Of a stretch of DNA of 62,020 nt, positions 6,043-44,389 are shown piece by piece. How positions within the stretch are numbered: the first letter of the stretch is position 1; every line of letters begins with the position of its first letter. The position numbers were made by a program, and so were the translations under genes. The stretch covers positions 1 through 62,020 of the forward strand of contig JBEQAF010000001.1 of the NCBI GenBank assembly GCA_041640455.1, in the 5' to 3' direction. The notes beneath the pieces were generated by a model that was not told the DNA's origin, made no database searches, and saw nothing but the letters and a program-made list of their open reading frames with translations. Source of the stretch: a bacterium (GTDB lineage Bacteria > CALINM01).

Positions 6043-6051
6043 TCCTTTTAT

Positions 6052-8302: not shown

Positions 8303-8324
8303 CCGTTTCCCCCATCTATAAAAA

Positions 8325-12164: not shown

Positions 12165-12165
12165 T

Positions 12166-13985: not shown

Positions 13986-14047
13986 CTCAGAGGGAGAGCA
14001 AAGCGTTCGCAACGCTTGGGTCGGGGGTTCAACTCCCCTCATCTCCA
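13976..14047 (+). tRNA. tRNA-Ala (anticodon CGC); no encoded CCA
   Basis: I folded the cloverleaf by hand. Acceptor GGGGATG pairs with CATCTCC and includes the G3:U70 alanine identity pair. D arm is GCTC/GAGC. Anticodon arm is AAGCG-TTCGCAA-CGCTT. T arm is GGGGG-TTCAACT-CCCCT. Discriminator is A. Confidence 0.9.
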
Positions 14048-18732: not shown

Positions 18733-18755
18733 ACTATCCTCCTTTCTATAAATTT

Positions 18756-19430: not shown

Positions 19431-19447
19431 CTTCTCCCCCCTTTCCT

Positions 19448-20644
19448 TTAAAATTTTACGTTAAGGGCTATAAACCCTTTGTAGTTATTTTTATAATCAT
19501 AGCTCACATTATCTTCAAACTTTGCAGCCAGGGAGATATTCTTTCTGATATCATAGGTAAACCCCGCCCAGTATCTTTTTGCTATATCTTCACGTTCTGC
19601 CCTTTTAAAATCATCATAATCTACTCCCCCTGATATGGCCATATTCTTTACTTTATACTCTCCGTCAAGTCTTATTCCGCCAACCTTTCCTGCGTAGCCG
19701 TTTCTTTTCTCGTAGCTGGCATTAACTGTGAGATTTTTTAACGGCATAGCTCTTAAGCCTATCTCATAAAGATCTGCCTCTGCATCTCCATCAAAATCCT
19801 CTCTGGCATATCCGATAGTAACCCCATAGTTTTTATTAATGGCGTACTGACCTTTTAAAGCATACTCCCTGTATTTGTCCACTGCAAATACACTATAAAC
19901 TGAAGTATAGTCAAAGGAGGGGAAGCTCTGATAATATTCGGCTTTTATCACAAGATCCTTAACAGGTGTTGACTTGAGCCCCAGTAGAAACTGGTTGGTG
20001 GATTTAAAGACATAATCATATTTTGTATCCAGATAGAAACTTAAATTCTTAGCTATGGGACCATCGGCAGAAAAACCGATTATCTCCTTTGAACGGTCAT
20101 TTCGGTCATATCTAACCGCATAGCTTAACTGAAGATAATAGTTTTTAAAATTTGAAAAGGCACTGGCTGACCATAAGTAAGAATCTTTCGCTCCAAGCTC
20201 GCTTCTTTCTGAGAACCTAACCTCTCTCCCCCCAAAAAATCTAAAACCCACAGGTCCCAGATTTGTTAAAGTAAGCGAGCCGCCATCAATAATTCCCGAA
20301 AGGGCATTAGAATAGGCATACTGTCTTCCAAGCCATATATGGGCTTTACCGTTAAGCAGGTCTTCGTAGCTTAAGTAAAGATAATAAAGCCGCGCATCCA
20401 GATCATCGCTTGAGCTGAGCTGTTTATTAAGTCTACCATAGGCATGAATGGATAGCTTATCGTCTTTAGTTAGCCTGGATACATCTACCTTAAGATACTC
20501 TGCAATATCTTTTTCGTTATCTCTTGTAATAAAATTATTATACCAGAGGTACTGAGTGGAACTCTTAAAATTTATCTCTGCTGAAAAAACAACGGTTGCG
20601 ATAAAAACAAAGCTCAGAGAGATTAAAAATCTTAGTTTAGCCAT
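19448..20644 (-). CDS. outer-membrane beta-barrel protein (OmbB-like porin of a porin-cytochrome complex)
   Basis: Signal peptide, alternating aromatic/polar beta-strand pattern, and a C-terminal ...ALNVKF. It is the first gene of the three-gene cytochrome cluster. Confidence 0.7.
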   Translation of the reverse strand: MAKLRFLISLSFVFIATVVFSAEINFKSSTQYLWYNNFITRDNEKDIAEYLKVDVSRLTKDDKLSIHAYGRLNKQLSSSDDLDARLYYLYLSYEDLLNGKAHIWLGRQYAYSNALSGIIDGGSLTLTNLGPVGFRFFGGREVRFSERSELGAKDSYLWSASAFSNFKNYYLQLSYAVRYDRNDRSKEIIGFSADGPIAKNLSFYLDTKYDYVFKSTNQFLLGLKSTPVKDLVIKAEYYQSFPSFDYTSVYSVFAVDKYREYALKGQYAINKNYGVTIGYAREDFDGDAEADLYEIGLRAMPLKNLTVNASYEKRNGYAGKVGGIRLDGEYKVKNMAISGGVDYDDFKRAEREDIAKRYWAGFTYDIRKNISLAAKFEDNVSYDYKNNYKGFIALNVKF

Positions 20645-20820
20645 CTTCCCTCCTTATTTATATGAATTTTAATTTTTTTTAATATTTACCTTAAGTAAAC
20701 CACAGGGGGTGTTTTTTGTCAATCCAGAATCTCAAAAAAATTTAAATTTTAATTTTTTAATGTAACAAACGTTACGTTATTTGATAGGATTTTTTATCTA
20801 TTCTGTCAAAAATTTGTCAT

Positions 20821-23118
20821 CTAAAATCCAAGAGCGCACTGGCCAATACTAATGCAGGCGTCGTTTGGAGGGCTAAATCGGTTTATTAATGGTGTTAGTC
20901 CAAGCTCGTGGGATTTTTTGAAAAAATGATAGGTCAGATAGCTGTTCTGAAAGCTACCGCCAGAGAAGATTATTTTTTTGCAGCCCTTTTCCTTTGATAG
21001 CTTTTCCACTACTAACATAAAGGCATGTACAACTGTTGAATGAAATTTTATGGATATTACACTTCTGTCAGCATCACTTAGAAAATCTGAAAAAATATCA
21101 ATTAATATCTGATTTACATCAATCTCATAGGGGTTTGTTTCGTTAAAAGAGATGTCATAAGCGCCATACCAATCTTTTAGCTCAAATTTTTTGTATATGA
21201 GATTTTCCAGCTCCTGGGCGGGCTCACCTTCGTAACTCACCTTCTTTCTAAAGCCAAGAAGATAGGAAACACAGTCAAAAAGCCGACCAAGACTGGATGT
21301 TAAGACCTTTGATTGAGACACAGCTTTTGAAAAAGCACCAATATTGGCTCTACTTGGCTCTGAAAGCTGATTTAGCAGTCGTTCATCTTCAAATTTGGAG
21401 GAAAGAAGATAGCTCAAGAACATTTTTTCTGGATCTTTTATAGCACTATCACCAAAAGGAAAAGGCTTGTAGGAAAGCTTGCCAGCTCTATTAAAGCCTT
21501 CTTTTAAGCTTCCATAGAAGATCTCCCCGCCCCAGATCATGCCGTCCTCTCCGTATCCTGTGCCGTCCAAGGCAATTCCTACCACGGGCTCATCAAAAAT
21601 ATTGTTTTCCAGACAGACTGATGCGATATGGGCTTTGTGATGTTGAACCATTATGAGATCTTTATTAGCAGCTATCTCATGAGCATGACTGGTGCTTAGA
21701 AAATTAGGATGCAGATCACAGACATATAGATCTGGCTCAAACTCAAATATTTTTTTAAAGTCTTCAATGGTCTCCAGATAGGACTCATAGCTTTCGTAAT
21801 CTGCAAGGTCTCCTATGTACTGAGACTGAATGAGACTATCGTTTTTTAAAATACTTACGGTAGCCTTGAGGTCAGAGCCAAGCCCCATAATCTTTTTTGA
21901 AAAGCTTTTTGTTAGAAAAAGCGGTTTTGGTGCGTAGCCTCTGCTTTTTCGAAAAAGCAGTTCAATGGACTGTCTGTCAGGAAGGTCTATCTCTATCACT
22001 TTGACGACCGAGTCTTCCACATATCTTACAATCTCTCTGTTGTGGACCAAAAAGTAGTCTGCCAGGTCCTTTAGCCGTTCAATATCCATATCTTTATAAA
22101 CGATGGGCTCACCTGAGATATTAGCAGATGTGCAGATAAGAATCGGAATTTTTTCAAGCATAAGATAATGAAAGGGCGCATAGGGTAGCATTACTCCGTA
22201 GTATGGGCTACTACCTGCTATGGGATCAGGATCTGTGGCTATTATGTTTTTCTTTTTCTTTAGCAGTACAATGGGTTTTTCTTTGCTATTAAGTATTTGC
22301 TTCTCATGGTGGTTTATCTCCACATATTCTTTGAGAAGCTCCTCATCTCGAAAAAGCAGGGCAAAGGGCTTTCGGTCTCTCTTTTTTCTTTCTCTTAAGG
22401 TTAACACAGCTTCTAAATTTGTTGCATCCAGAATAAGATGATACCCGCCTACACCTTTTACAGCAATAATACTGCCTTTTTTTAAAAGCCCATTTACCTC
22501 GTCAAAGATGTTAGCTACCTTTATCTCCTTAAAATCTTTATTTAATAGTTTATACACAGGTCCACAGACTTCACAGGAGATGGGCTGGGCATGATACCTT
22601 CTTGATCTAATATTTTTATATTCAGCCTCACAGGCAGGACACATCTCAAAGACGCTCATGGTGGTATTTTTCCTGTCGTAGGGATGGTCTCTGATTATGG
22701 AAAAGCGAGGTCCACAGTTAGTGCAGTTAACAAAAGGATACTTATAAAACCTGCTTGAGGGTGAAAAGAAATCTTCCTTACAGTCTCTACATACTGCCAC
22801 GTCAGGAGAAAGATATATATTTGAGCTATCTCCTGAAAAAGAAGGGGCTATGCTAAAATCTTTAAAATCAAAAGAATCAATCTTTTGAATCTCAATCTGG
22901 TTTATAATAGCAAGGGGTGGTGGAGAGTTTTTCAGCTCTTCAAGATAGGAGCTGACAGCCCTTTTACTGCCTGTAACTACAATCTCCACTCCCTTTTTTG
23001 TGTTTCTTACGATGCCCTTAATATTATATTTTTCTGACAGGTTAAATAAGAAGGGTCTAAAACCAACCCCCTGAACAACACCCGAAACCTCTATCCTTAA
23101 ACTTTCTTTTTCTTCCAT
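20821..23118 (-). CDS. hypF: [NiFe]-hydrogenase maturation carbamoyltransferase HypF
   Basis: Acylphosphatase N-terminus (VSGVVQGVGFRPF), two CxxC..CxxC zinc fingers, and YrdC-like and Kae1-like domains. 765 aa. Confidence 0.95.
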   Translation of the reverse strand: MEEKESLRIEVSGVVQGVGFRPFLFNLSEKYNIKGIVRNTKKGVEIVVTGSKRAVSSYLEELKNSPPPLAIINQIEIQKIDSFDFKDFSIAPSFSGDSSNIYLSPDVAVCRDCKEDFFSPSSRFYKYPFVNCTNCGPRFSIIRDHPYDRKNTTMSVFEMCPACEAEYKNIRSRRYHAQPISCEVCGPVYKLLNKDFKEIKVANIFDEVNGLLKKGSIIAVKGVGGYHLILDATNLEAVLTLRERKKRDRKPFALLFRDEELLKEYVEINHHEKQILNSKEKPIVLLKKKKNIIATDPDPIAGSSPYYGVMLPYAPFHYLMLEKIPILICTSANISGEPIVYKDMDIERLKDLADYFLVHNREIVRYVEDSVVKVIEIDLPDRQSIELLFRKSRGYAPKPLFLTKSFSKKIMGLGSDLKATVSILKNDSLIQSQYIGDLADYESYESYLETIEDFKKIFEFEPDLYVCDLHPNFLSTSHAHEIAANKDLIMVQHHKAHIASVCLENNIFDEPVVGIALDGTGYGEDGMIWGGEIFYGSLKEGFNRAGKLSYKPFPFGDSAIKDPEKMFLSYLLSSKFEDERLLNQLSEPSRANIGAFSKAVSQSKVLTSSLGRLFDCVSYLLGFRKKVSYEGEPAQELENLIYKKFELKDWYGAYDISFNETNPYEIDVNQILIDIFSDFLSDADRSVISIKFHSTVVHAFMLVVEKLSKEKGCKKIIFSGGSFQNSYLTYHFFKKSHELGLTPLINRFSPPNDACISIGQCALGF

Positions 23119-23759
23119 CTAATTTTTTCTTCTAAGAATCTTACGAAGTCAAATAAAGTCTCTTCTTTTGTTGCCTGAATTTCAAATATTCTGACCTTAG
23201 GGTTTATGGAAAGAATGTCATTTTTTGCCTTTTCAAGTGAGAAGTTTGTATAGGGGATAAGATCAGTTTTGTTTATAAGCACGCAGTCTGCCTTAAAAAA
23301 TGTGCCAGGATATTTTTTTGGTTTATCATCTCCTTCTGTAACAGAGAGTATAACCAGCTTAAAATCCTCTCCCAGATAAAAATCACTGGGGCAGACAAGA
23401 TTACCCACATTTTCAATAATTAAAACGTCAAGCTTTGACAGGTCAAAAAATGAAAGCCCTTCTCTTATCATACCCGCATCGAGATGGCAGGCACCTTTCG
23501 TATTTAGCTGGACTGAAAGAACACCGGGCTTTGAAAGCCTTTCTGCGTCAACCGTATCTTCTATGTCGCCTACAATAACACCGATTCTGTAAAATCTTGA
23601 GAGATTTTTTATTAGATTTTCAAGAAAAGTGGTCTTTCCTGCACCGGGAGAGCTGATAAGATTAAATACCAGCACACCATGTTCATCAAACCTTTCTTTT
23701 AACTGCTTTGCAATCTCATCGTTACCCTTAAGAATAGGATAGACAACCTTAACCTTCAA
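23097..23759 (-). CDS. hypB: hydrogenase nickel-incorporation GTPase HypB
   Basis: SSPGAGKTT P-loop, ENVGNLVCP and NKTDL. Confidence 0.9.
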   Translation of the reverse strand: MKVKVVYPILKGNDEIAKQLKERFDEHGVLVFNLISSPGAGKTTFLENLIKNLSRFYRIGVIVGDIEDTVDAERLSKPGVLSVQLNTKGACHLDAGMIREGLSFFDLSKLDVLIIENVGNLVCPSDFYLGEDFKLVILSVTEGDDKPKKYPGTFFKADCVLINKTDLIPYTNFSLEKAKNDILSINPKVRIFEIQATKEETLFDFVRFLEEKIRWKKKKV

Positions 23760-24096
23760 CGCTCTCTCCTTCTATCTCTTTAATATTAAGCTCCATTCCT
23801 TCAGTTATATTCAGGGAGATATTTTTGCAAACAGGGCAGATGTAACTTAGATTAGTCAGTGTAATCTCTTTGTTACACTCAGAGCAAAAGGCGGTTATAT
23901 CTTTTTTAACAAATTCAAAAGATATATTTAGCCCCTCCTCCTTAATAATGCTACTTAAACAAAAGCTTAAGGCATCTATATTTACACCGCTACCCTCACC
24001 TACCTCGACAATAACCCGGCTGGCTTTTATTTTCTCTCTTTTTTCAATATCTTTTACGGCTTCAATAGTTGATAGGGCAACGGAGGCTTCATGCAT
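23749..24096 (-). CDS. hypA: hydrogenase nickel-insertion protein HypA
   Basis: MHE N-terminus and a CxxC...CxxC zinc site. 115 aa. Confidence 0.9.
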   Translation of the reverse strand: MHEASVALSTIEAVKDIEKREKIKASRVIVEVGEGSGVNIDALSFCLSSIIKEEGLNISFEFVKKDITAFCSECNKEITLTNLSYICPVCKNISLNITEGMELNIKEIEGESVEG

Positions 24097-24550
24097 TACT
24101 TAAACATTTTAATATTAAATCATTGACAATGGAAATGAATTTTTCTTTTCTATCCATGAGAGTTTTGGTGGGAGAGCCTATCTTATCAATACATTCAGGC
24201 ACTATAGCTACCACATGGCATCTGGCTTTGCTACCCATCATCTTTGCAAGCTTATAAACATCCTCAATGCCAATGTCATGAAAGGATGTAATCATTTTGT
24301 CCACATAGCTCACATCATCCATAGGGAATGAGTAGATAGAGCCAGGCTCATCATCAGCCCTTAACACATCGAGGAAAATTATATATTCATAATCAAAAAA
24401 AAGTGGAAGGAGCGTATGCCCTGATACGCTACCTTCCAGAAAGTCTATCTTTAACGAGGGAGAAGGTAGGCTTTTTAACTCTCTTACAATATGGATACCA
24501 AAACCTTCATCACTGAGAAGCTCGTTACCAAGCCCTACCACTGCTATCAT
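24089..24550 (-). CDS. [NiFe]-hydrogenase large-subunit C-terminal maturation endopeptidase (HyaD/HupD family)
   Basis: VVGLGNELLSDEGFG N-terminus, 153 aa, located in the hydrogenase operon. Confidence 0.85.
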   Translation of the reverse strand: MIAVVGLGNELLSDEGFGIHIVRELKSLPSPSLKIDFLEGSVSGHTLLPLFFDYEYIIFLDVLRADDEPGSIYSFPMDDVSYVDKMITSFHDIGIEDVYKLAKMMGSKARCHVVAIVPECIDKIGSPTKTLMDRKEKFISIVNDLILKCLSNA

Positions 24551-24553
24551 ATA

Positions 24554-25168
24554 TTAACTAACTTTTTTTGTCTCATAGCCTGTAATCATGGAAATGTAAT
24601 AATCCTTGACAGTTACACCAGTGCTACCCAGATAGATATGTGCCATCAGGGAAATTAGATAAAATATGGTCAGTATAAAATGCCAGAACCTCACGTATCC
24701 TAAACCGCTGAAAAAATCAACCACCACTCTGAATATCTCAGGCTCATAAAGGGCAAAGCCTGTTAAAAACTGGGGGATAAAAACCAGTGGCCAGATAGAA
24801 TATGCTATTTTTTGCCCAGGATTATATTTACCAAAATCAGGTTTGGGAGCCTTTGTAAAAATCCCCCAGAGATAATATTTTAAAAGCACAAAAAACTGAG
24901 GAATGTCAGATGGTCTTACAATAATATCAAAGGCTTTCCTTGTAACAAAAAAGTAATAATATGCCCTTGACACATAGCACCATACAATTAGCCATGCAAA
25001 TAAAAAATGTATGTATCTTGCCATAGAGATGGTGCCAAAAAGGTGAACATATCTTGGCATGGCAATCTGAAGCCCTGTAAGCACAAGCATGATCATAGAA
25101 AGAGCATGCACAGCATGGGTTATTCTAACATACAAAGGGTGTCTGTAATATCTTACATATTCAGCCAT
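24554..25168 (-). CDS. Ni/Fe-hydrogenase b-type cytochrome membrane subunit
   Basis: Four-helix membrane protein with conserved His residues (RITHAVHA...), directly downstream of the large subunit. Confidence 0.85.
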   Translation of the reverse strand: MAEYVRYYRHPLYVRITHAVHALSMIMLVLTGLQIAMPRYVHLFGTISMARYIHFLFAWLIVWCYVSRAYYYFFVTRKAFDIIVRPSDIPQFFVLLKYYLWGIFTKAPKPDFGKYNPGQKIAYSIWPLVFIPQFLTGFALYEPEIFRVVVDFFSGLGYVRFWHFILTIFYLISLMAHIYLGSTGVTVKDYYISMITGYETKKVS

Positions 25169-25176
25169 GTTACCCC

Positions 25177-26736
25177 CTATATAACCTTAAACTTTTTGAC
25201 CTGATTTGTCTCCGGATGAATTACATGGATTGCGCAGGCAAGACAGGGGTCAAAGGATCTTACAACTCTAACTATCTCAATGGGATTTTCTGGATCAGCT
25301 ATGGGTGTGCCGATTAAAGCCTGTTCAACAACGCCTTTCACACCTTTTTCATCAGCAGGACCGCAGTTCCATGTGGATGGGACCACACACTGATATCTTT
25401 CAATCTTGTGATTCTTAATCTTAATCCAGTGACCTAAGGCGCCTCTTTGAGCCTCAGTAAGCCCATATCCTTCGCTCTCTTTTGGCACTTCATATCTGTT
25501 TATTGTTGGTTTATCAGGATTGAGCTGGAGTAGCCATTCCTCTGTCTTATCGGCAATAATTTTTAGCTCTAAAGCCCTTGCAGCATGCCTTCCGAGCACC
25601 GAGAAAAGCACTGAAACATCAGCATTGAGAGATTTGAGGGTATTGTTAATAAGCGAGGATACCTCTGGTCTCTTTCCAGACAGATGGGTAACTGCCATTC
25701 TGGCAAGAGGTCCTACCTCCATAGCATGTCCGTCATATCTTGCTGCCTTTACCCATGTGTAGGCATTTGCCTTGTTCGGATCTGCCTGCGTCTCACCTTC
25801 ATAAGGATGCAGATTAGACTTTGAAGAGTACTTTGCGTAAAACACATCTTCTTTTATCTTTGCCTGATCAAGATTATCCAGCTTACCATTTACAAACGCG
25901 CCAGGAATGTGATAAAGCTCTGTCCCTTCGTTGTTAAGTTCAAAGATACCAAATGCCAGCAGATTTTTATGTCCGGCACCTATTTTAAAATACTGAGGGT
26001 ATGCCTTTGCAACGGCTAACACATCGGGAATATAACAGGTATCAATAAACTCCTTTATTCTTCTTAATCTGTAAAGATATGAGGCTATTCTTTCTGGATT
26101 AACCTGCTCAGCTGCGCCGCCGGGCACGATACCTGTAACATGGGGCATCTTTCCACCCCAGATAGCTATCATCTCCTGAGCTGTTCTTGCCATCTCAAAT
26201 GCCTTTACATAATGGGAGATGGCGGTAAGATTAAGCTCCTTATCTTTAATATAATCGCCCTTATATCTGGGCATAAAAGGAGCTGCGGCGGTTTTACTTC
26301 CTGAAGCGACCTCTCTTTTTACCCATTCCTTAATATTATTCATTGTTGGATCATTGCCTTTGTAATCCAGAATAGCAGTTATATCAACATAATCAAGAGC
26401 TGAAAGCTGATAAAAATGTAGTATGTGAGAGTGGAGCAGGTTTCCAGCTGCCATTAAATTTCTAATAATTCTTCCGTTGTCGGGAGGATTAACCTTAAAT
26501 GCTGCATCAAGGGTCTTTGCCGATGCCATAGCATGTCCAACCGGACAGACTCCGCATATTCTCTGGGTAACATTTATGGCATCCTGAGGATCTCTTTCCT
26601 GAAGAATAATTTCCCAGCCTCTAAACATATCACCCCTTGAACGGGCATCTTTAATCTTTCCACCTTCTATCTCAACTTCAATTGAGTAATGCCCCTCTAT
26701 TCTTGTTATAGGATCAACAACTATTTTTTTAGCCAT
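25177..26736 (-). CDS. [NiFe]-hydrogenase large subunit (membrane-bound uptake type)
   Basis: N-terminal RIEGH and RICGVCP. C-terminal DPCLACAIH followed by a 15-aa extension for protease cleavage. Confidence 0.95.
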   Translation of the reverse strand: MAKKIVVDPITRIEGHYSIEVEIEGGKIKDARSRGDMFRGWEIILQERDPQDAINVTQRICGVCPVGHAMASAKTLDAAFKVNPPDNGRIIRNLMAAGNLLHSHILHFYQLSALDYVDITAILDYKGNDPTMNNIKEWVKREVASGSKTAAAPFMPRYKGDYIKDKELNLTAISHYVKAFEMARTAQEMIAIWGGKMPHVTGIVPGGAAEQVNPERIASYLYRLRRIKEFIDTCYIPDVLAVAKAYPQYFKIGAGHKNLLAFGIFELNNEGTELYHIPGAFVNGKLDNLDQAKIKEDVFYAKYSSKSNLHPYEGETQADPNKANAYTWVKAARYDGHAMEVGPLARMAVTHLSGKRPEVSSLINNTLKSLNADVSVLFSVLGRHAARALELKIIADKTEEWLLQLNPDKPTINRYEVPKESEGYGLTEAQRGALGHWIKIKNHKIERYQCVVPSTWNCGPADEKGVKGVVEQALIGTPIADPENPIEIVRVVRSFDPCLACAIHVIHPETNQVKKFKVI

Positions 26737-27801
26737 TTATTTCTCCTCCTTTACTTTCTCAGTCTCTTCTTTCTTTTTTGAACTAAAAGCCCTTCCAAGA
26801 GCATGGGCTACAATACCACCTAAGGTTGCAGCGCCCACGATTGTTCCAAATTTGTCAGCCTTTACCTTAAGGCCGGGTATGCCAGGAACTTTTGCCTCAG
26901 GCAGTCTCATATATACACCATTCCCCTTTGAGCCGATAAAGCTCTCAGCTGCGCAGCCGATACAGGGAGAGCCACCCCTGATAGGCCAGTTAACGCCTGT
27001 ATTCCACTGATAGTTCGGGCAGTCTGCGTATGTAATTGGTCCCTTACATCCCAGCAGATACATACATTTTTTCTCACCAAAGGTTCTGGCAAAATCGCCT
27101 CTTTCAAAGAAAGGTCTCATCTCGCAATTGTCATGGATAAGTCTTCCAAAAAATACGAGAGGTCTTCTCTTTGAATCAAGCGCAGGAACTCCAAATAGCT
27201 TTAAATGAGCCAGGAGACCTACCAGATGATGGGGTCTTCCTGGACATCCTGGCAGATTAACAAGCTTTGATGTACCTATAACATCCATTACAGATTTTGC
27301 GCCGGTTGGGTTTGGTTCGCCTGCAGGTATACCGCCCCATGTGGCGCAGGTGCCGTAAGCAACCACATACTGGGCTTTTTCGCTAAGTCTTTTTGTCCAG
27401 TCAAGCATGGTAATGGGTTTTCCGTTCTCATCCTCACCAATTGTGCAGTACATACCATTATCCTTAACGGGAATAGCTCCCTCAATCACAAGAATAAACT
27501 TTTCATCAGATTTTAATACCTCATGAAGCACATTTATGCACTGATGACCCGATGCAGCCATCACAGTCTGATGAAACTTAAGGCTTATAATATCTGTAAC
27601 AATATCAGGAACAGTTGGCGCAACCGTATTAAGAAGAGACTCGGAACATCCCGCACAGTTTTGCCCCTGAATCCAGACAACAGGAATATTTTTTCCCTGT
27701 TTTTCAATGGCATGGGCTACCTTTGTAAGAAAGCTGTTTGACATGATAGCCGCACTGGCGCCACCAAGCACTTTAAGAAAATCTCGTCTTGAAAAATTCA
27801 T
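26737..27801 (-). CDS. [NiFe]-hydrogenase small subunit with Tat signal and C-terminal membrane anchor
   Basis: Twin-arginine signal MNFSRRDFLK, Fe-S cysteine patterns (CAGCSES...), and a hydrophobic C-terminal helix. Confidence 0.95.
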   Translation of the reverse strand: MNFSRRDFLKVLGGASAAIMSNSFLTKVAHAIEKQGKNIPVVWIQGQNCAGCSESLLNTVAPTVPDIVTDIISLKFHQTVMAASGHQCINVLHEVLKSDEKFILVIEGAIPVKDNGMYCTIGEDENGKPITMLDWTKRLSEKAQYVVAYGTCATWGGIPAGEPNPTGAKSVMDVIGTSKLVNLPGCPGRPHHLVGLLAHLKLFGVPALDSKRRPLVFFGRLIHDNCEMRPFFERGDFARTFGEKKCMYLLGCKGPITYADCPNYQWNTGVNWPIRGGSPCIGCAAESFIGSKGNGVYMRLPEAKVPGIPGLKVKADKFGTIVGAATLGGIVAHALGRAFSSKKKEETEKVKEEK

Positions 27802-27853: not shown

Positions 27854-27869
27854 ATCAACAAAAATGCCA
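27854..27869 (-). promoter_or_regulatory. weak sigma54-like -24/-12 candidate upstream of the [NiFe]-hydrogenase operon
   Basis: The minus strand reads TGGCAT-TTTTG-TTGAT. The -24 element is good. The -12 element reads TTGA instead of TTGC. It ends about 52 nt upstream of the ATG. Confidence 0.3.
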
Positions 27870-28007: not shown

Positions 28008-28027
28008 GTGTAATCTATAGATTACAC
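28008..28027. promoter_or_regulatory. perfect 20-bp palindrome GTGTAAT-CTATAG-ATTACAC (candidate operator/UAS)
   Basis: Read directly from the sequence. It lies between the dut stop and the hydrogenase operon. The same 7-bp arms and 6-bp spacing recur at 38053-38072. Confidence 0.5.
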
Positions 28028-28050
28028 TGTTATGAGAAAATTACATTTTA

Positions 28051-32138: not shown

Positions 32139-32292
32139 TTATAAACCTCCTCTTTCCTTTCAAATTAGGATATTTAATCTAACATATTTAAAAGCTATTG
32201 TAAATTATAAAAAATATTGACCGATTAAATCGGGCTATGCCTGATACCTGTTCAGCGGATATGGCTGGTTAAAAGTTTTACCCCTAATTGAC

Positions 32293-34548
32293 CTAAAGCA
32301 TTATATCTTCTCTTTTAATATTGTATTTTTTCATCAGATTGTGAAAGGTTGGTCTGGGAATACCTGCCAGCTCCGCCGCCTTTTTTACATTGCCCAGTGT
32401 CTGTTTGAGATATTTTTTTATCAGATTTTTTTCAAAAAAGGTGAGCTGCTCATCTCTCTGCTCCCAGAGATTTTTATTTGTCACAAGCACATCGATGGTG
32501 GGAGATATATTCTGAATATGGATTGGAAAATCCTTTAGTTTAAGCTCCTCTCCCTGTGAGAGTATAATGGCTCTCTCCACCACATTTGCCAGCTCTCTTA
32601 TATTTCCAGGCCAGTTGTAGGCTTTGAGGTATTTAATTATCTCCTTTTCGTAGGAGCTTATTTTTTTGCCGATCTTTTTTGAGTTGACCTCAATGAGATG
32701 GTGCAAAAAGTATGGGATATCATCCTTCCTCTCTCTTAAAGGTGGCAGATGAATGCTGAATACGTTAAGTCTATAGTAAAGGTCTTCTCTGAACTTCCCT
32801 TCATCAATAAGCTGTTCAAGATTTCTGTTGGTAGCTGCAATAACCCTAACATCAATCTTTTTTACCTCATTACTGCCGAGAGGTCTTATCTCCCCATTCT
32901 GTAAAACTCTCAGAAGCTTGGTCTGAAGATTGAGCGGCATATCACCTATCTCATCCAGAAAGATAGTGCCGTTATGAGCCACCTCCAGTAACCCCTTTTT
33001 ATTCTCCACTGCTCCCGTAAAAGCGCCCTTCACATGACCAAAAAGCTCGCTTTCAAGAAGATGCTCTGTTAATGTGGTGCAGTTTACGGTAATCATAGGT
33101 CTGTCTTTTCTCGTCGATTTCTGATGCAAAAGGGTGGCAACCATCTCCTTACCTGTTCCGCTTTCGCCTCTGATAAGTACTGTGGTATTGGTAGGAGCCA
33201 CTTTTTCCAGCTGTTCCCAGATCTCCCGCATCCGCTGGGTCTTCCCCAGAATAAAATTAAAATCCTTATCTTTGTATAGCTCCTTCTGAATTATCTTATA
33301 ATCATTTAGCAGATTAATATTGCTTACCGATATCTTGTTTAGTAAATAGGGGAGACACATCTCTATCTCTGCAAGCCCCATTATGACTGCCTTTGCCTTC
33401 TCATAGCAGTTGTCATATCCGCAGGCACCGCAGTTAAGATTTTCACCGCCATTGTAGGTTTTCATCTCATCAAGAATATTTTTTATCTCCTCTTCCTTTG
33501 GCTCCACAAATAATAACCTGTCTTTTTTAAAAATCTTTTTTTTCAGCCCTGACTGAGGCATTATCTTTTCCTCATACTCTCCCTGAAAGTAATAATCTTT
33601 AATGTATCTTCTGACCCTCTCAGCTCTTTCATAAATGGTTCCTTTATCCTTCATGATGGGTCCGTCTATACAGCCTTTACAGAAAAGTATGTCCACAAAT
33701 TTAGGAGACACATCGCCCTGTCTGAGTGAGTGAAGAAAGCTCATTACCTCATCTTTACCATCTATAACAAGTATATCGCTGTCAAGGATGTCTGTGCCTA
33801 TTGCGGCAGTTCTGATAAGCCCACCAGACAGGGAAAAAGACCTACCGATTCTTGGAAAATAGCCATCAAAATCGGAAAAGCTCTTTCTTTTTGGATTTAT
33901 ATCTCTTTTTTGAAACTCCTCATCCACCTCTTTGAAAGTATAGACCGAGTCAATAGCGCCTTTGTCATCTTTTATTTCACTTTTTTTTGCCACACAGGGA
34001 CCAATAAAAAACACCATGGAGTTATCTATCTTCTCTTTTATGAGCCTGCCCATAGCTATCATAGGAGATACAATGGGAACAAGATTTTCAATCAGTTCGG
34101 GATAAAATTTTGAGATAAGGTTTACAATAGCAGGGCAGGGAGAAGAGATATAGGTCTTTTTCTCAATGGTCTTTGCCTTAAGGATAAACTCCCTGTAACT
34201 ATCAATTATTATCTCCGCACCATATGCAACCTCATAGACATAGTTAAAACCCAGCTTTCTTAAGGCAGAAACTATCTGCAGCGGATGGCAGTCTTTGTAA
34301 TAGGACACAAAAGACGGGGCAAGAAGCGCCACAAGATTTTTATTTTTTCTAATTGCCAGATCAATAGAGAGCCCCCTCTCCACATCTTTGGCGTCCTGAG
34401 AGCAGAGCTTTATGCAGTTTCCACATACAATGCAGTTTTCCTGGATCACATAAGCCTGGTCGTTCTGAACCTTAATAGCCTTAACTGGACAGCCTCTAAT
34501 GCAGGAGTAGCATTTTTTGCACAGCCCCTCTTTAGTCTGAACAATCAT
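32293..34548 (-). CDS. sigma54-dependent transcriptional activator with an N-terminal 2x[4Fe-4S] ferredoxin, an [FeFe]-hydrogenase-like H-domain and an extra Cys4 FeS module
   Basis: [12 protein letters not shown] and [12 protein letters not shown] are followed by hydrogenase large-subunit-like motifs [14 protein letters not shown] and FCKGCIDGP, then [12 protein letters not shown]+ motifs are GESGTGKE and GAFTGA, with a C-terminal Fis-type HTH. There is no receiver domain. Confidence 0.85.
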
Positions 34549-35786
34549 ATAGCCACCTCAAAAGGAGATACTGACCTTTCAAGCAGATTAAAATAGCCCG
34601 ATATGAAAACCCCGTAGTTTATTATTGGGATACCCAGCTTTTTAAACTTTTCCATCCTTGCAAGCATATCTCTTCTTGTTAGCATACAGCCGCCACAATG
34701 AAAAACTGCCTTTATATCATCCTGCTCGGAAAAAAGAGGCACTATGCCAGAAAATAGTTTAAATTTTAGCTTCTTGCCTGTCTTTTTAGAGATCATATCT
34801 GGTAGTATATCTCTTGCCATATCGCCTTCCAGTCTGTGATGGGTGCAGGCTTCCACGATAGCCACCGTATCACCATCTTTAAGATTAGTAAGCCCATTGA
34901 AGCCGTCAATGAAACTTTTTAGATCACCTTTATGGTTTGCAAAAAGTATGGAAAAGGAGGTTATAGGGGTATTGTCAGGCAGCTTCCCTAAAATATCTTT
35001 AAACACCTGCGCATCAGCAATAATTAGATCGGGCGGATTTTTAAGATTTTTTAACGTATCTTCAAGCTCATCAGGCTGAACAACTATAAGTTTTACATGC
35101 TTTTCCAGCGCATCTCTCATCACCTGCACCTGAAGCGGTTTTAGACGCCCCTTTGGATAGGCTTTGTTTACCGGCACCACAAGAAGAAGGGTATCTCCCT
35201 GCTTAACAATATTATCCAGAATTCCTTTATCCTCATACTCTGCAAGGCTTTCTCCGATAAACCTTTTAATCTCATCAATTCCTTTATTTTCTAAGGCAGA
35301 GCAAGGAAAGGATAAGATCTTCTTTCCGCTTAGCTCGTAATAAAAACTGTCACATCTTTTACTAAAAAAATTTAGTATTGTTGCTTCCAGATCTATTTTG
35401 TTGAAGATAAAGGCATAGGGGATATTTTTCTTTTCAAGATAGCTCATATAGCTTAACTCTTTATGAGACAGAGAAAAATTTTCATAGGGAGGTTGAAATA
35501 CAAAAAACACGAGATCTGAACGAGCCAGTATCTCTTCGGTAACCTTAATCCTTTCTTCAGCAAGCGTAGAGCTATCATCAATACCTGGCGTATCGGTAAG
35601 AAGCACAGGTCCCGCAGGTAGAATCTCCATTGCCTTTTCTGTGCGGTCTGTGGTGGTGCCTGCAATGGGTGAAACAATGGATACCTTCTGATTGGTAAGA
35701 GAGTTGATAATACTGGACTTACCCGCATTGGTTCTCCCCACAAAGGCAACCCTCTTTCTTAAAGATTTTGGCGTATCCTCAAACAT
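34545..35786 (-). CDS. hydF: [FeFe]-hydrogenase H-cluster maturation GTPase HydF
   Basis: [10 protein letters not shown]-loop and C-terminal CTHH...HCGGC cluster ligands. The start is moved to ATG 35786 (MFEDTP...), which has GGAGG upstream and overlaps the hydE stop (ATGTTTGA). Confidence 0.9.
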
Positions 35787-36777
35787 AAAGCCTCCTTCTG
35801 TAACCATATGAATCGCTTATCCTGAACCCCTGCTCTGGCAGGATCTTTTTTACAAAATCAATCGAAACAGGTCTTTTGCCATCATATATGGAATATTTTT
35901 TTCTTTTCAACTCGGGCGTAAAGTTTGGCATAATCACATTACATCCAGAGTTTAAAGCATTAATCAGGGCTGAAAGATCACCGAGTGTGTACAGGGCTGT
36001 GGTAGCTGGTATATTTACATCCTGCAAAACTACCCTTGCAAGGGCAACCATGTTTATAACCAGATCAATATGAGGAGCACTGTAGCCAGAAAGAGGCGTT
36101 CCACCAGATGGAATAAACGGTCCCATTCCTGCCATATCACAGTCAAGCTCTTTCATCAGAAAGATATCGTTAATATAATCTTCGAGATCAGTAAAAGGCA
36201 GCCCGATAATATTTCCAAGTCCAACCTCATAGCCTATCTTTTTTAACTGATCATAAATTTTTAATCGGTCTGATAATTTTTCACCAGGATGAAGCCTTTC
36301 ATATACCTTCTCGTTTGATGTCTCATGTTTGATTAAAAATCTTTTTGCCCCCGCATCAAAAAAGGCTTTATAATCATCAGGCGCTCTCTCTCCTATACAG
36401 AGCGTTATGGTAAGATGGGTCTCTTTTTTAATCTCTTTTATAATCTCGCAGAGGTAGTCTCTTGTGTATAAAAGATCTTCTCCTGACTGCAGAACCACTG
36501 TCTTAATACCGCTCTTTTCAATAATCTTTGCTTTATAAACAATCTCATCCTTAAAAAGCCTGTATCTTTCAATGGGGCTTGATTTTCTTATACCGCAATA
36601 AAGGCAGTTTTTTCTGCAGTAGTTGGAAAACTCAATGATACCTCGCAAAAAAATCTCATCGCCGTAGACCTTTTTCCTGATCTTTCCTGCTTCAAGCTTA
36701 AGCATCTCTGGATTTTTTAAAAGCTCTTTAGCGTCACATTTTTTAAACATAGAGATCGCTTCTTCCCGAAAAGACAT
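35779..36777 (-). CDS. hydE: [FeFe]-hydrogenase maturation radical-SAM protein HydE
   Basis: BioB-like radical SAM protein with CRKNCLYCG. It lies between hydG and hydF. The start could be ATG 36777 or ATG 36750. Confidence 0.9.
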   Translation of the reverse strand: MSFREEAISMFKKCDAKELLKNPEMLKLEAGKIRKKVYGDEIFLRGIIEFSNYCRKNCLYCGIRKSSPIERYRLFKDEIVYKAKIIEKSGIKTVVLQSGEDLLYTRDYLCEIIKEIKKETHLTITLCIGERAPDDYKAFFDAGAKRFLIKHETSNEKVYERLHPGEKLSDRLKIYDQLKKIGYEVGLGNIIGLPFTDLEDYINDIFLMKELDCDMAGMGPFIPSGGTPLSGYSAPHIDLVINMVALARVVLQDVNIPATTALYTLGDLSALINALNSGCNVIMPNFTPELKRKKYSIYDGKRPVSIDFVKKILPEQGFRISDSYGYRRRLYV

Positions 36778-38029
36778 GATCTATCTTTTTTTTAAACCCC
36801 TCTTTTAACCCCAGCTCTGACGCTTTTTCATAAATAAAAGCCATCAGCTCCTTAGCCCTGTAAGGGGGGAAAAAATCTCTTACATACTCGGTAAGGCTAA
36901 GCAGGGCATTTATATTACAGTAGTTTTTAATCTTTCCTGTTTCAGCAAGCTCCATAAAGTCTTCTCCAACTCTTCCCTTCCTGTAGCAGGCTGTACAGAA
37001 GCTGGGGATAAGATCTTCACTAATTAGCTTTTCCACCACCTCTTTAAGAGTTCTCTCATCGGAGATGGAGAACTGGTCTGACCTTTCCTTGCAGCTGTAG
37101 CCACCGGGCGATGTGGCAGAGCCAGCGCTGATCTGTGAGACACCGAGCTTAAATAGCCTGTCTCTAAGCTCCTCAGGCTCTCTGGTAGAAAGAATAATCC
37201 CCGTATAAGGCACGGCTATTCTAAGCACCGCTATGATATAGGCAAAATAATCATCGCTTATATGATGAACAGGAAAATTAAAGCTTAACCCCTCTACCTC
37301 TTTTAATCGTGGCACAGAGATGGTATGGGGACCCACATTAAAATTTTTTTTAAGCTCTTCAACATGTTTCAAAAGACCATAAATATCTTCAGCAGGATCA
37401 CTGAGACCAAAAAGCACCCCCATGCCGATATCCTTTATGCCTGCCTCCATTGCCCTCATGGGCGCATAATATCTGTAATCAAAATCTGACTTGGGACCTT
37501 CTGGATGAAAAAAGCTGTAGAGATTTCTGTTATAGGTCTCCTGAAATAGCTGGTATGTGCCTATATTTGCACCTTTAAGCCTTTTAAATCCATCAAGATC
37601 AAGCGGGGCGATATTTATGTTAATCCTTCTTATGGAGCCTTTTGTGTCATGTATGGAATACACAAATTTTATAGCCTCCAGGATATAATCCAGATCACTG
37701 GACTCACCGGATACCAGAAGGACTCTTTTAACCCCCTGATTTAAAAGAAATCTTACCTCTTTCTCAAGCTCGGCTCTGTCAAGGCGCTTTCTCGTGATGA
37801 GACGGTTTTTTTTGTTAAATCCGCAATAGCGGCAGCTATTCTGACAGAAATTTGATACATAAAGGGGAGAAAAAAGGACAATCCTTTTTCCGTAAATCCT
37901 TTCCTTAATCTTTGAGGCAAGAGAAAGCACCTCTTTCCGTGTAATCTCATCTTTACACAAAAGTAGCTCATAAGCCTCTTCTGGACTTAGACCTTTAAGT
38001 TTTTCCGCTTTTGAAAGCAATTTTTGCAT
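36743..38029 (-). CDS. hydG: [FeFe]-hydrogenase maturation radical-SAM tyrosine lyase HydG
   Basis: ThiH-like with CQNSCRYCG plus the HydG-specific C-terminal CTAC-x22-C motif. Confidence 0.9.
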   Translation of the reverse strand: MQKLLSKAEKLKGLSPEEAYELLLCKDEITRKEVLSLASKIKERIYGKRIVLFSPLYVSNFCQNSCRYCGFNKKNRLITRKRLDRAELEKEVRFLLNQGVKRVLLVSGESSDLDYILEAIKFVYSIHDTKGSIRRININIAPLDLDGFKRLKGANIGTYQLFQETYNRNLYSFFHPEGPKSDFDYRYYAPMRAMEAGIKDIGMGVLFGLSDPAEDIYGLLKHVEELKKNFNVGPHTISVPRLKEVEGLSFNFPVHHISDDYFAYIIAVLRIAVPYTGIILSTREPEELRDRLFKLGVSQISAGSATSPGGYSCKERSDQFSISDERTLKEVVEKLISEDLIPSFCTACYRKGRVGEDFMELAETGKIKNYCNINALLSLTEYVRDFFPPYRAKELMAFIYEKASELGLKEGFKKKIDHVFSGRSDLYV

Positions 38030-38052: not shown

Positions 38053-38072
38053 GTGTAATTTTAATATTACAC
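38053..38072. promoter_or_regulatory. palindrome GTGTAAT-TTTAAT-ATTACAC, 24 nt upstream of the hydG ATG
   Basis: Read directly from the sequence. The arms and spacing are identical to the palindrome at 28008-28027. Confidence 0.5.
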
Positions 38073-38151
38073 TAAGGGGAAAAACAAGACAAGTCAAATA
38101 ATAAAAATTTAACTCATTTTTCAACAATTTTATTAAATTTGAGGGATTTTT

Positions 38152-38192
38152 AAAAAAATTTCGGGAAGGGGCTTTATATAACCCGCTTCCCG
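38152..38192 (-). terminator. intrinsic-terminator-like hairpin plus U7 in the hydG upstream region
   Basis: Minus-strand RNA reads CGGGAAGCGGG-UUAUAUAAAG-CCCCUUCCCG (10 bp, one bulge), followed by AAA and UUUUUUU. It could terminate the HMA gene or attenuate hydG transcription. Confidence 0.5.
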
Positions 38193-38226
38193 TGTAGTAG
38201 GGAGGGAAAGTATGTACTCTTTTAAT

Positions 38227-38242
38227 AGCAATCACCATGCCA
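38227..38242 (-). promoter_or_regulatory. sigma54 -24/-12 promoter candidate upstream of hydGEF-regulator
   Basis: The minus strand reads TGGCAT-GGTGA-TTGCT, matching TGGCAC-N5-TTGCW at every key position (GG-N10-GC). It lies about 200 nt upstream of the hydG ATG. Confidence 0.55.
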
Positions 38243-42490: not shown

Positions 42491-43948
42491 TCATCCTTTT
42501 ACAACACCTAAAGGTTTTAGCCTTGCTACCTTTTTTGATATGCCTGCACTATGAACCACATCCACCACCTCTGAGATATCCTTATAAGCCTCAGACATCT
42601 CTTCTGCCAGAGTCTCCCTTCCAGCAGATTTTACCAGTATGCCCTTTGCGCTCATCTCGTCACGGATTGATCTTCCCTTTGCCCTCTTTATAGCCTGATG
42701 CCTTGAAAGCACCCTGCCTGCGCCATGACATGTGGAGCCAAAGGTATTCTCCATAGCAAGCTGAGAGCCCAGAAGAATGTAAGATGCCCTTCCCATATCG
42801 CCAGGAATGATGACAGGCTGTCCGAGAGACTTGTATATATCAGGTAGCTCAGGGTGGTTTGGCGGAAAAGCTCGGGTTGCTCCCTTTCGGTGAACCATTA
42901 GCCTTTTCTTTTTTCCATCAACTATGTGTTCTTCTACCTTCGCTATGTTATGAGCCACATCGTATATGAGTTTTAGCCCGAGCTCTTTTGGAGACATGCC
43001 AAGCACACTCAGAAAGGCTTCTCTTGTCCAGTGGGTAATGCACTGCCTGTTTGCCCACGCATAGTTTGCTGCCGCTTTCATTGCTGATAGGTAGTCTTTT
43101 GCCTCAGGGCTTTCTATGGGTGCGCAGGCAAGCTCCATATCAGGTAGATGAATGTTATATTTTTTTATAGCCCTATGCATTATCTCGATAAAGTCAGTGC
43201 AGACCTGATGTCCAAACCCACGTGAGCCCGTATGAATCATTACGGTAATCTGATCTTTAAAAAGCCCCATCTTATATGCCGCATCTTCATCATATATCTC
43301 ATCCACATACTGGATCTCAAGAAAATGATTGCCCGATCCGAGAGTACCCTGCTGACCTCTTCCTCTCTCATATGCCTTATTACTTATAATCTCCGGGTCT
43401 GCCCCCTCAAGACATCCGCCCGATTCTATGTGAGCCAGGTCTTCCCTATCGCCAAAACCTTCTTCCACTGCCCATACTGCACCTTTTGTGATGACAGCCT
43501 TCTCATCTCTGGCAGATAGTTTGAGTTTACCTTTAGAGCCCACACCAGATGGGACGTTATAATATATGTTTTCTACCAGATTGCTCATATGTTTTTTAAT
43601 GTCATCTTTTGTTAGGTTGCTTCTTAATATTCTTACGCCGCAGTTTATGTCATAACCTACACCGCCTGGAGATACTACGCCTTCTTCCATATCAAAGGCT
43701 GCCACACCGCCTATGGCAAATCCATATCCTGTATGAATATCTGGCATGGCAATGGATGCCTTTACTATACCTGGCAGAGTGGCTACATTGGCAACCTGTC
43801 TTAAAGCTTCTTCTTCAAGATATCTCTCAAGAGCTTCGTCTATGTATATCACTCCATCCACTTTCATATGGGGGATCGAGCCCTTAGGTATCTTAAGAGT
43901 GTAGGGGTTTATTCTTACTGCAGAGATACTATATTTTTTCTCCTCCAT
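42491..43948 (-). CDS. rtcB: RNA 3'-phosphate ligase RtcB
   Basis: GYDINCGVR, GSGNHF, HTGSRGFGHQ and CHGAGR motifs. 485 aa. Confidence 0.95.
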   Translation of the reverse strand: MEEKKYSISAVRINPYTLKIPKGSIPHMKVDGVIYIDEALERYLEEEALRQVANVATLPGIVKASIAMPDIHTGYGFAIGGVAAFDMEEGVVSPGGVGYDINCGVRILRSNLTKDDIKKHMSNLVENIYYNVPSGVGSKGKLKLSARDEKAVITKGAVWAVEEGFGDREDLAHIESGGCLEGADPEIISNKAYERGRGQQGTLGSGNHFLEIQYVDEIYDEDAAYKMGLFKDQITVMIHTGSRGFGHQVCTDFIEIMHRAIKKYNIHLPDMELACAPIESPEAKDYLSAMKAAANYAWANRQCITHWTREAFLSVLGMSPKELGLKLIYDVAHNIAKVEEHIVDGKKKRLMVHRKGATRAFPPNHPELPDIYKSLGQPVIIPGDMGRASYILLGSQLAMENTFGSTCHGAGRVLSRHQAIKRAKGRSIRDEMSAKGILVKSAGRETLAEEMSEAYKDISEVVDVVHSAGISKKVARLKPLGVVKG

Positions 43949-43960
43949 AACGCCCCCCCT

Positions 43961-44389
43961 CTAAATATCAAATAAAACTTTTGTCTCAAAGCCCTCAGCA
44001 TTCTCTTTTAGATAAAATCCGTGATAGGTAGCGGCTTTGATAAGAAGTTTTTTTTCATCCCTTTCTTCATCAAAGTAGTAGCCCATAAGCTTAGCATCTA
44101 AGCTAAAAATTTCGTTTTTCTGACTGACATTAACATTAATTTTACGGGCGACAAAGCCCTCAGCATCAAAGAGAAATATTAGCTCATTTAGCCAGTTTAT
44201 AAAAAGTCTTTCTAAGCTGTCGCACTTAAGCTCCACGTCCTTTTCAATCTCAATAATTTCTTTTACATCAGTTATTATGTCAAAAAGCCCCAGTCCACCA
44301 TTCTGAAAGAGTTCGTTTAAACTTCTGCCATAAACCAGAATCCCCACATCGCCAGTGGTTTCAAAGAAATCATATCTTTTTGGCAGCAT
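43961..44389 (-). CDS. archease (RtcB activator)
   Basis: 142 aa containing YDFFETTGDVGI near the N-terminus and KAATYHG near the C-terminus. It is adjacent to rtcB. Confidence 0.85.
   Translation of the reverse strand: MLPKRYDFFETTGDVGILVYGRSLNELFQNGGLGLFDIITDVKEIIEIEKDVELKCDSLERLFINWLNELIFLFDAEGFVARKINVNVSQKNEIFSLDAKLMGYYFDEERDEKKLLIKAATYHGFYLKENAEGFETKVLFDI

Follow-up and report, generated by a model that had tools for sequence, protein, structure and literature searches.

The window analyzed here, a bacterial contig of 62,020 nucleotides (JBEQAF010000001.1; CALINM01), carries on its minus strand an operon composed of hydG, hydE, hydF and a gene for a transcription factor in which a sensory [FeFe]-hydrogenase module is fused to the output domains of a sigma54 activator. 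A perfect 20-bp palindrome occurs only twice in the window, once upstream of hydG and once upstream of an operon for a [NiFe] uptake hydrogenase. Because this candidate operator is common to the regulator locus and an H2-uptake operon, the regulator is probably an H2 sensor that turns on the consumption of H2. We give the complete mechanism, in which a one-component H2 sensor activates H2 uptake, a probability of roughly 55%. The initial annotation of this DNA had already proposed that a single polypeptide senses H2 or redox state and activates transcription. That proposal is strengthened by the conservation of the operon, by invariant residues of the sensor and by the shared operator. What it lacked was the likely target; its inventory of the window overlooked the entire [NiFe]/hyp operon (20821-27801) and all of the cis-elements described below.

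The hydG-hydE-hydF-regulator operon

We annotated the whole contig with Pfam profiles and judged the identities of the three maturases by NCBIfam equivalog cutoffs, all of which are exceeded. HydE, HydF and HydG are dedicated builders of the 2Fe subcluster of the H-cluster. HydG (36743-38029, minus strand), the radical-SAM tyrosine lyase responsible for the Fe(CO)2CN synthon, scores 478 bits with TIGR03955 (cutoff 312) and carries CX3CX2C at residue 62 (CQNSCRYC) and CX2CX22C at residue 345. The radical-SAM maturase HydE (35779-36777, minus strand; TIGR03956, 294 bits versus a cutoff of 255) has the radical-SAM motif CRKNCLYC, and the GTPase scaffold HydF (34545-35807, minus strand; TIGR03918, 421 bits versus a cutoff of 326) combines HydF_dimer and HydF_tetramer domains with P-loop, CTH and HCGGC motifs.

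These three genes and the regulator gene are consecutive and overlap at every junction, as the initial annotation had described, and each motif that it listed for the four products is present. The probable start codon of hydE is at 36750, which gives an 8-nt overlap with the hydG stop codon (junction ATGTTTAA), and the corresponding 323-amino-acid product is called on an identical Logan contig. The hydF gene probably starts at 35786, behind a GGAGG ribosome-binding site, and overlaps the hydE stop codon by 8 nt (junction ATGTTTGA). The hydF TGA and the regulator ATG share the sequence ATGA, an overlap of 4 nt. An independent gene caller run on the identical Logan contig, which spans 8.9 kb, chose the same starts proximal to ribosome-binding sites. 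The operon ends before rpsO with a terminator-like hairpin (32221-32233, minus strand) located about 60 nt 3′ of the regulator stop codon.

Relatives were gathered by a metagenome scan with the sensor half of the regulator alone, which yielded loci L089, L090 and L091 (bin Ga0197142), and by look-ups of relatives of the [NiFe] large subunit, which yielded L092 (an NCBI metagenome-assembled genome (MAG), GCA_053493295.1) and L093. When the full-length regulator served as the query, all 80 loci obtained (L002-L081) matched only residues ~400-748. These loci are uninformative about the sensor because they are dominated by generic enhancer-binding proteins (EBPs) drawn in by a Walker-B peptide pattern. 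The operon was compared among the window and the four further regulator-bearing genomes, L089 through L092. All four keep the order hydG-hydE-hydF-regulator with overlaps of 4-8 nt. The regulators of L089, L090 and L091 are 91%, 84% and 74% identical to that of the window, and HydF diverges to as little as 48% identity among the operon-bearing genomes. The closest named relatives of the window's PNPase and [NiFe] large subunit, at 58-70% identity, belong to Proteobacteria/Deltaproteobacteria, Deferrisomatales and Zixibacteria MAGs.

No HydA is encoded within 10 kb on either side of the coupled genes in any of the five genomes. Within the 62 kb, six-frame tblastn searches with three catalytic HydA proteins and one M2e-type HydS return only the sensor of the regulator, which bears out the earlier statement that the window holds no catalytic hydA-like gene.

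The regulator (32293-34548, minus strand; 751 amino acids) has the domain order 2x[4Fe-4S], H-domain, Cx2Cx4Cx16C, AAA+ (with GAFTGA) and Fis-type helix-turn-helix (HTH). Its Pfam matches are Fer4, Fe_hyd_lg_C, PF04060, Sigma54_activat, AAA_lid_14 and HTH_8, with no receiver domain among them and no PAS match at E<0.01. This agrees with the domain set, including the missing receiver, that had been read from the sequence at the outset, and the three profiles named at that time as a check all match (Fe_hyd_lg_C, 2e-46; Sigma54_activat, 8e-73; HTH_8). It is the sole EBP or HTH_8 protein and the sole Fe_hyd_lg_C gene within the window.

The domains follow one another closely. Two CxxCxxCxxxC motifs, at residues 10 and 39, make up the 2x[4Fe-4S] relay (residues 7-49; 34402-34530, minus strand, as for all regulator domains). 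They precede the H-domain (residues 70-297; 33658-34341), which was assigned by its Fe_hyd_lg_C match and by residue-level alignment. The next [4Fe-4S] motif, CGACGYDNC-x16-C (residues 370-400; 33349-33441), matches PF04060 and has the exact Cx2Cx4Cx16C spacing at residue 373. A linker of only about 30-32 residues leads from this motif to the sigma54-interaction AAA+ domain (residues 433-600; 32749-33252), which matches PF00158 over the full model and contains GESGTGKE (Walker A), DEIG (Walker B) and, at residue 508, the sigma54-contacting loop GAFTGA. The HTH domain (HTH_8; residues 702-742; 32323-32445) has a recognition helix that is nearly invariant across the five orthologous regulators.

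We aligned the H-domain to the solved [FeFe] hydrogenases HDCR HydA2, T. maritima HydA and CpI, and we number its residues according to CpI. In loop L1 (SSPCPA), the proton-relay residue C299 is replaced by proline and C300 is kept. Loop L2 (GPCVAKKSE) replaces M353 with glycine and keeps C355, K358 and E361, and loop L3 (LFCKGC) replaces M497 with leucine and keeps C499 and C503. In addition, Q325 is replaced by methionine. Our criteria for a sensory class, which are loss of Cys299, substitution of Met353 and Met497, and a Cx2Cx4Cx16C motif, were taken from published work in which the putative sensory classes M2e and M2f carry this motif and bind an H-cluster in vitro (PMC8163306).

The same pattern pervades the sensor family. 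We compared 125 modules: the window's own, those of four orthologous regulators and those of the 120 top-ranking database homologues. In all of them C300, C355, C499, C503, K358, E361, S323-P324 and A230-P231-S232 are invariant. Several of these residues touch only the CN ligands of the 2Fe subcluster, to which K358, S232/P231 and P324 form hydrogen bonds. The replacements of M353 by glycine and of M497 by leucine are likewise universal, whereas that of C299 by proline is found in 111 of the 125. The resulting signature, S[ST]PCPA / GPCxAKKxE / LFCxGCxxGP, is distinct from those of M2e-like and group A proteins. We had considered the spacing of the L3 cysteines, Cx2C in the regulator versus Cx3C in catalytic enzymes with the loop one residue shorter, as an argument against H-cluster binding. 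This argument was dropped; the M2e-type protein of locus L085 has the same spacing, and so it is not a defect. Conservation of this kind is expected of a real, kinetically throttled H-cluster site, and the residue pattern of the module is that of sensory rather than catalytic [FeFe] hydrogenases.

Operators, promoters and a leader RNA

The second hydrogenase locus lies 4.5 kb downstream of the regulator on the same strand, beyond rpsO-pnp-M16-dut. Pfam profiles identify a [NiFe] uptake hydrogenase/hyp operon of seven genes that abut or overlap (20821-27801, minus strand): the small subunit with a twin-arginine translocation (Tat) signal bearing the RRDFLK motif (26737-27801), the large subunit (25177-26736; NiFeSe_Hases, 4e-158), a cytochrome b (24554-25168), a maturation protease (24089-24550), hypA (23749-24096), hypB (23097-23759) and hypF (20821-23118). 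This Tat-exported, cytochrome-b-linked, uptake-type enzyme is the sole [NiFe] hydrogenase in the window and does not belong to group 2b. In L091 and L092, the gene for the small subunit begins about 160 nt past the regulator stop codon.

The palindrome shared by the two loci is GTGTAAT-N6-ATTACAC, and its two perfect copies compare with an expectation of 0.00; none of 300 dinucleotide-preserving shuffles produced one. Allowing up to one mismatch, four copies are observed versus 0.007 expected, all at hydrogenase loci, and the palindrome was not found in any unrelated locus fetched. The perfect copy at hydG (O1, 38053-38072) lies 24-43 nt upstream of the start codon, and its position is conserved in L089 (no mismatches), L091 (one), L090 (two) and L092 (two). 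Operator and regulator HTH helix are conserved together across the five regulators.

Both one-mismatch copies lie in coding sequence. O2 (37939-37958) is inside the 5′ part of hydG, 114 bp from O1, and has an equally spaced counterpart with two mismatches in L089; the other (23859-23878) is inside hypA, about 100 nt upstream of hypB. A further operator-like palindrome is present inside hydG at 37644-37663, and hydG-internal copies with one or two mismatches recur at equal spacing in L089. Judging from their sequences, such copies in hypA and hydG may be functional or may be shaped by coding constraint.

Upstream of the [NiFe] operon, the perfect copy GTGTAATCTATAGATTACAC abuts a weaker copy with three mismatches to form a tandem operator (28008-28046). 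The perfect site is 207 nt before the small-subunit ATG and 139 nt upstream of a sigma54-like element, TGGCATTTTTGTTGAT (27854-27869, minus strand), which itself lies 53 nt before the ATG and has TTGAT rather than TTGCW at -12. We compared this promoter with those of L091, L092 and L093. Every one of these four [NiFe] promoters has two abutting palindromes and, 50-140 nt farther downstream, a TGGCAY-N5-TTG(A/T)T element 37-53 nt before the ATG (L091 12369-12384, L092 8875-8890 and L093 8884-8899, each with TTGAT or TTGTT). These operators and the TGGCAY element are the sole conserved islands in promoter DNA that is otherwise 56% identical. The sigma54 dependence of the [NiFe] promoter is nevertheless uncertain, and probable at best, because its -12 element is without the canonical GC. 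The conserved deviation may denote an unusual promoter class or the use of a different sigma factor. The rpoN gene is not among the annotated open reading frames (ORFs) of the 62-kb contig.

At the regulator operon, a -24/-12 promoter with the exact sigma54 consensus, TGGCATGGTGATTGCT (38227-38242, minus strand), lies 198 nt upstream of the hydG ATG and is conserved in L089, L090, L091 and L092. The window contains two exact consensus matches versus 0.2 expected. A leader RNA of about 68 nt (38147-38216, minus strand) is predicted to begin at the transcription start site of this promoter. It consists of a single-stranded CU-rich segment, ACAUACUUUCCCUCCCUAC, that is complementary to Shine-Dalgarno sequences, followed by a GC-rich hairpin and a U-run (U7 in the window; U6-8 overall), and it folds with a minimum free energy of -20.9 kcal/mol (z -3.8). 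The block hardly varies among the window, L089 and L090. It is still recognizable in L091 and L092, where the stem is retained with altered sequence. Each locus has one copy (L089 1726-1801; L090 157-236; L091 6373-6444; L092 2872-2947).

The hairpin was found through cross-genome alignment only; a simple sigma70/terminator scan missed it because of its bulged stem and the 3-nt spacer before the U-run. An Rfam search with the leader returned no family, the best matches being on the wrong strand with E>0.6, and a search of the window for seed-complementary targets returned the RNA's own gene alone. The element is a candidate small RNA under sigma54 control or, alternatively, a leader that attenuates the hydGEF-regulator operon. 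Because of this leader, the hydG operator lies downstream of the sigma54 promoter, so it may be a downstream enhancer, an autorepression site or both. There is no alternative conserved palindrome upstream of the leader promoter.

We also evaluated the second exact sigma54 site, TGGCATTCAGATTGCT (10526-10541, plus strand), and rejected it as a part of this system. It is located inside the 5′ end of a gene for a GAF-MshEN-T2SSE ATPase, and an MlaE/MlaD-like operon (10738-13985) follows about 197 nt downstream. No GTGTAAT palindrome is near the site, so if real it would depend on a different activator. A gene pair for RtcB RNA ligase and archease is present at 42491-44389 (minus strand), and no RtcR gene lies within the window. 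In other bacteria this pair is classically regulated by sigma54 and RtcR. Directly 3′ of hypF is a cluster for a porin and multihaem cytochromes, MtrC-like and c7-like (16549-20644, minus strand), whose gene content suggests H2-driven extracellular electron transfer. The 5′ part of the porin ORF includes a two-mismatch copy of the operator (20524-20543); upstream, at ~20765-20782, there is also a separate inverted repeat, ACGTAACGTTTGTTACAT.

A candidate mechanism and its competitors

In the mechanism that we favor, HydG, HydE and HydF, translated from the same mRNA as the regulator, would install the 2Fe subcluster of the sensor. H2 would react at a slow H-cluster lacking a proton relay, and the chain of clusters would become reduced. 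A conformational change passing through the linker of some 30 residues beyond the C-terminal cluster would then de-repress the AAA+ domain. The regulator would oligomerize on the tandem palindromes and open sigma54 promoter complexes with ATP. Its main target would be the operon for the exported [NiFe] uptake hydrogenase and its Hyp proteins, and thus H2 would induce its own consumption. At hydG, the operator would autoregulate the sensor/maturase operon, the short RNA or both.

Several observations weigh against this mechanism. The -12 element of the [NiFe] promoters consistently does not carry the near-invariant GC. The hydG operator is off the usual position of an upstream activating sequence, being downstream of the sigma54 promoter and overlapping the start codon in L091 and L092, and a site so placed could serve repression instead. 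In published work on TamHydS, H2 does not reduce the C-terminal cluster, which counts against the simplest electron-relay picture. For all members of the fusion family, moreover, H2 sensing is a prediction from sequence. Finally, at locus L095 the hydGEF genes accompany both a HydS-kinase fusion and a catalytic HydABC, and here too a catalytic HydA that also uses HydEFG may be encoded beyond the 62 kb analyzed.

The L095 arrangement and a possible HydA beyond the 62 kb would equally suit a regulator that binds [4Fe-4S] clusters only and reports redox or iron-sulfur status like Nar1/NARF-type proteins, with hydGEF serving a HydA encoded elsewhere. Many of the Firmicutes fusions come from genomes with a catalytic HydA, and the shortened L3 loop might be read in the same way. 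We consider this explanation unlikely. Residues with a role only at the 2Fe subcluster (K358, S232/P231, P324 and the bridging residue C503) do not vary across the 125 homologues, and the Cx2C spacing is common to the M2e-type class, which binds an H-cluster in vitro. Furthermore, the coupled hydG-hydE-hydF-regulator genes recur in five genomes with no nearby HydA, and the same is true of the kinase-linked locus L094, described below.

Another explanation keeps the H2 sensor and assigns the palindrome to some other protein, such as a repressor acting at sigma70 promoters, leaving the regulator with its own sigma54 promoter and leader as its only direct target, in the manner of hgtR in Geobacter. 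The sole canonical sigma54 promoter of the system does drive the leader RNA, and the hydG palindrome occupies a promoter-proximal repressor position with a spacer that resembles a -10 box (TAATAT/TATAAT). The non-canonical [NiFe] element also fits, as does L093, which has the operator and no regulator within 9 kb. Against this, tandem 20-bp palindromes placed 50-140 nt upstream of TGGCA-N6-TTG represent classic EBP geometry, no other transcription factor is conserved at these loci, the operator is conserved together with the regulator HTH, and the leader promoter offers no other conserved palindrome upstream. We view a separate operator-binding protein as quite improbable. It seems very unlikely that the H-cluster module senses CO or O2, or the H2/H+ poise with inverse sign, so that the regulator turns hydrogenase genes off, or turns them on without H2. 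CO and O2 do react with H-clusters, sequence does not reveal whether regulation is positive or negative, and the position of the hydG operator fits repression. However, a GAFTGA-bearing AAA+ domain is an obligate activator, the linked genes are those for H2 uptake, and uptake hydrogenases controlled by HoxA/HupR systems are typically induced by H2.

A more far-reaching scenario can be put forward tentatively, and we regard it as doubtful at present. This would be an uncultured lineage without a catalytic [FeFe] hydrogenase that maintains HydEFG solely for the H-cluster of a transcription factor, that places a [NiFe] enzyme under an [FeFe] sensor, and that uses a sigma54-driven anti-Shine-Dalgarno RNA of about 68 nt as a global output of the H2 response, an RNA counterpart of HgtR in a deltaproteobacteria-like setting. 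The locus suggests that cells can keep the H-cluster pathway for signaling alone and that a [NiFe] uptake enzyme can be controlled by a sensor of the [FeFe] type. If true, the presence of hydEFG in metagenomes need not mean fermentative H2 production, and the regulator would offer a compact, genetically encodable H2 biosensor. The hypothesis is directly testable because input and output reside in one polypeptide, its operon also encodes the maturases, and there are a defined candidate operator and defined candidate promoters.

Relatives and known systems

Databases contain at least 7,730 homologues of the sensor half at E≤1e-10. Most of the top 120 are fusions to HisKA/HATPase_c, 21 are sigma54/HTH_8 fusions, and others are joined to GGDEF or MCP modules or are free-standing; at 21 of 120, the fusion architecture is not rare. 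In a neighbor-joining tree, computed without support values, the window lineage is apart from the Firmicutes sigma54 fusions and adjoins kinase-fused sensors. Generic EBPs, the Firmicutes fusions and the partner response regulator of L094 all resemble the AAA+/HTH half to the same degree (45-53%), and this half is therefore uninformative about how the fusion arose.

The closest sensor homologue overall (P0001) is the kinase-fused protein of L094. This locus (positions 1-14000; JGI 3300010938) encodes FlpD, the small and large subunits of a cytoplasmic-type [NiFe] hydrogenase, its protease, hydG, hydE, hydF, the HydS-kinase fusion and, farther along, a response regulator with REC, sigma54-interaction and HTH domains, with no catalytic HydA in view. 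By gene content, it is a two-component version of the circuit in the window, with its own maturases and a [NiFe] neighbor.

How often the fusion accompanies hydEFG was a question raised by the initial annotation, and the answer differs by lineage. The genes are linked in L089 through L092, whereas none of seven Firmicutes sigma54 fusions examined is linked to hydEFG; five of these are beside HydABC-type bifurcating operons, one is beside an NAD-formate dehydrogenase and one is near FixABCX. Strong sigma54 promoters adjoin several Firmicutes fusion genes (L082 12401-12762; L084 12404-12765; L086 5500-6017, minus strand; L088 9680-9695, minus strand), and one of them points into a HydCBA operon. 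These promoters are positioned to drive a 61-amino-acid ORF at Moorella-type loci, or a 38-amino-acid ORF and a hairpin ahead of HydCBA. Their placement beside the regulator recalls that of hgtR beside the Geobacter EBP. The Moorella fusion records P0013 and P0039 are named 'NorR' (anaerobic nitric oxide reductase regulator), 'ZraR' or 'Iron hydrogenase', which are probably mis-annotations transferred from only one half of the protein, either AAA+ or sensor.

Proteins of this kind have been noted before. An EBP with a domain like the large subunit of iron-only hydrogenases is encoded upstream of Geobacter sulfurreducens hgtR, and it was proposed to be an H2 sensor that activates the H2-induced RpoN promoter of hgtR, with 'data not shown' (Ueki and Lovley, NAR 2010). 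We found no literature that follows up on this protein. As described there, the Geobacter EBP resembles the window's regulator, and in both cases an adjacent RpoN promoter serves a short terminated transcript, which is monocistronic in Geobacter and predicted in the window. The Geobacter transcript encodes the HgtR repressor, whereas the predicted RNA of about 68 nt is non-coding, and the paper makes no link to hydEFG or to a hydrogenase operator. Fer4, Fe_hyd_lg_C and FeS domains have also been listed among the regulatory domains of Clostridiales EBPs (Nie et al., 2019). The Clostridiales/Moorella proteins (P0013, P0021 and P0039; 736-748 amino acids) have equal domain order and 43-45% sensor identity. 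They differ from the window's protein in having HydABC or NAD-formate dehydrogenase neighbors, no hydEFG link and no GTGTAAT operator, and they form a separate clade on the unsupported tree.

These precedents, together with the 21 fusions among 120 homologues, limit the novelty claimed for the architecture by the initial annotation, although its statement that the family is uncharacterized stands. A hydrogenase-domain EBP as a proposed H2 sensor was already known, and the fusion is common in databases. New here are the dedicated maturase operon, the operator that connects a sensor of the [FeFe] type with a [NiFe] uptake hydrogenase, and the RNA driven by sigma54.

Like the putative sensory [FeFe] hydrogenases of group C (M2f, T. 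maritima HydS) and group D (M2e, Thermoanaerobacter mathranii HydS), the regulator has 2x[4Fe-4S], the four cysteine ligands, loss of Cys299, replacement of both Met353 and Met497, and a C-terminal Cx2Cx4Cx16C motif. It differs from group C in having no PAS domain and from group D in not being free-standing, and, unlike either group, its AAA+ and HTH output domains are fused directly about 30 residues past the C-terminal cluster. The M2e-like protein of L085 is 28% identical to it, with the signature SQACPA / TPCPGK / LECQACLGG. HydDB recognizes only kinase-, MCP- and phosphatase-linked subtypes, and in reviews and primary papers up to 2026 on sensory [FeFe] hydrogenases the sigma54 fusions are unmentioned. 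In that literature, the sensory role of groups C and D is still called 'putative' after about 15 years, and the question is how the signal exits the H-cluster; the examples studied have as their output a PAS domain, or else a kinase or phosphatase that is a separate protein without known targets.

The direct fusion of an N-terminal metal sensor to AAA+ and HTH domains, with the sensor presumably repressing the AAA+ domain, has parallels in NorR, which detects nitric oxide with non-haem iron, and in NifA. Their GAF sensors are unrelated to that of the regulator. In NCBIfam, the C-terminal half finds its best whole-protein matches in PrdR, NorR and NifA, none of which reaches the cutoff. A parallel in regulatory logic is provided by the HupUV/HoxBC-HupT/HoxJ-HupR/HoxA cascades of Rhodobacter and Ralstonia, wherein a slow sensor hydrogenase reports H2 and an NtrC-family activator switches on the hyp genes along with those for a membrane-bound [NiFe] uptake hydrogenase. 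This resemblance is functional only, with no homology: the HupUV/HoxBC sensor is a group 2b [NiFe] hydrogenase matured by Hyp proteins, whereas the sensor in the window is of the [FeFe] type and would depend on HydEFG. With neither a kinase nor a receiver domain, the system in the window appears to collapse the three proteins of the cascade into one.

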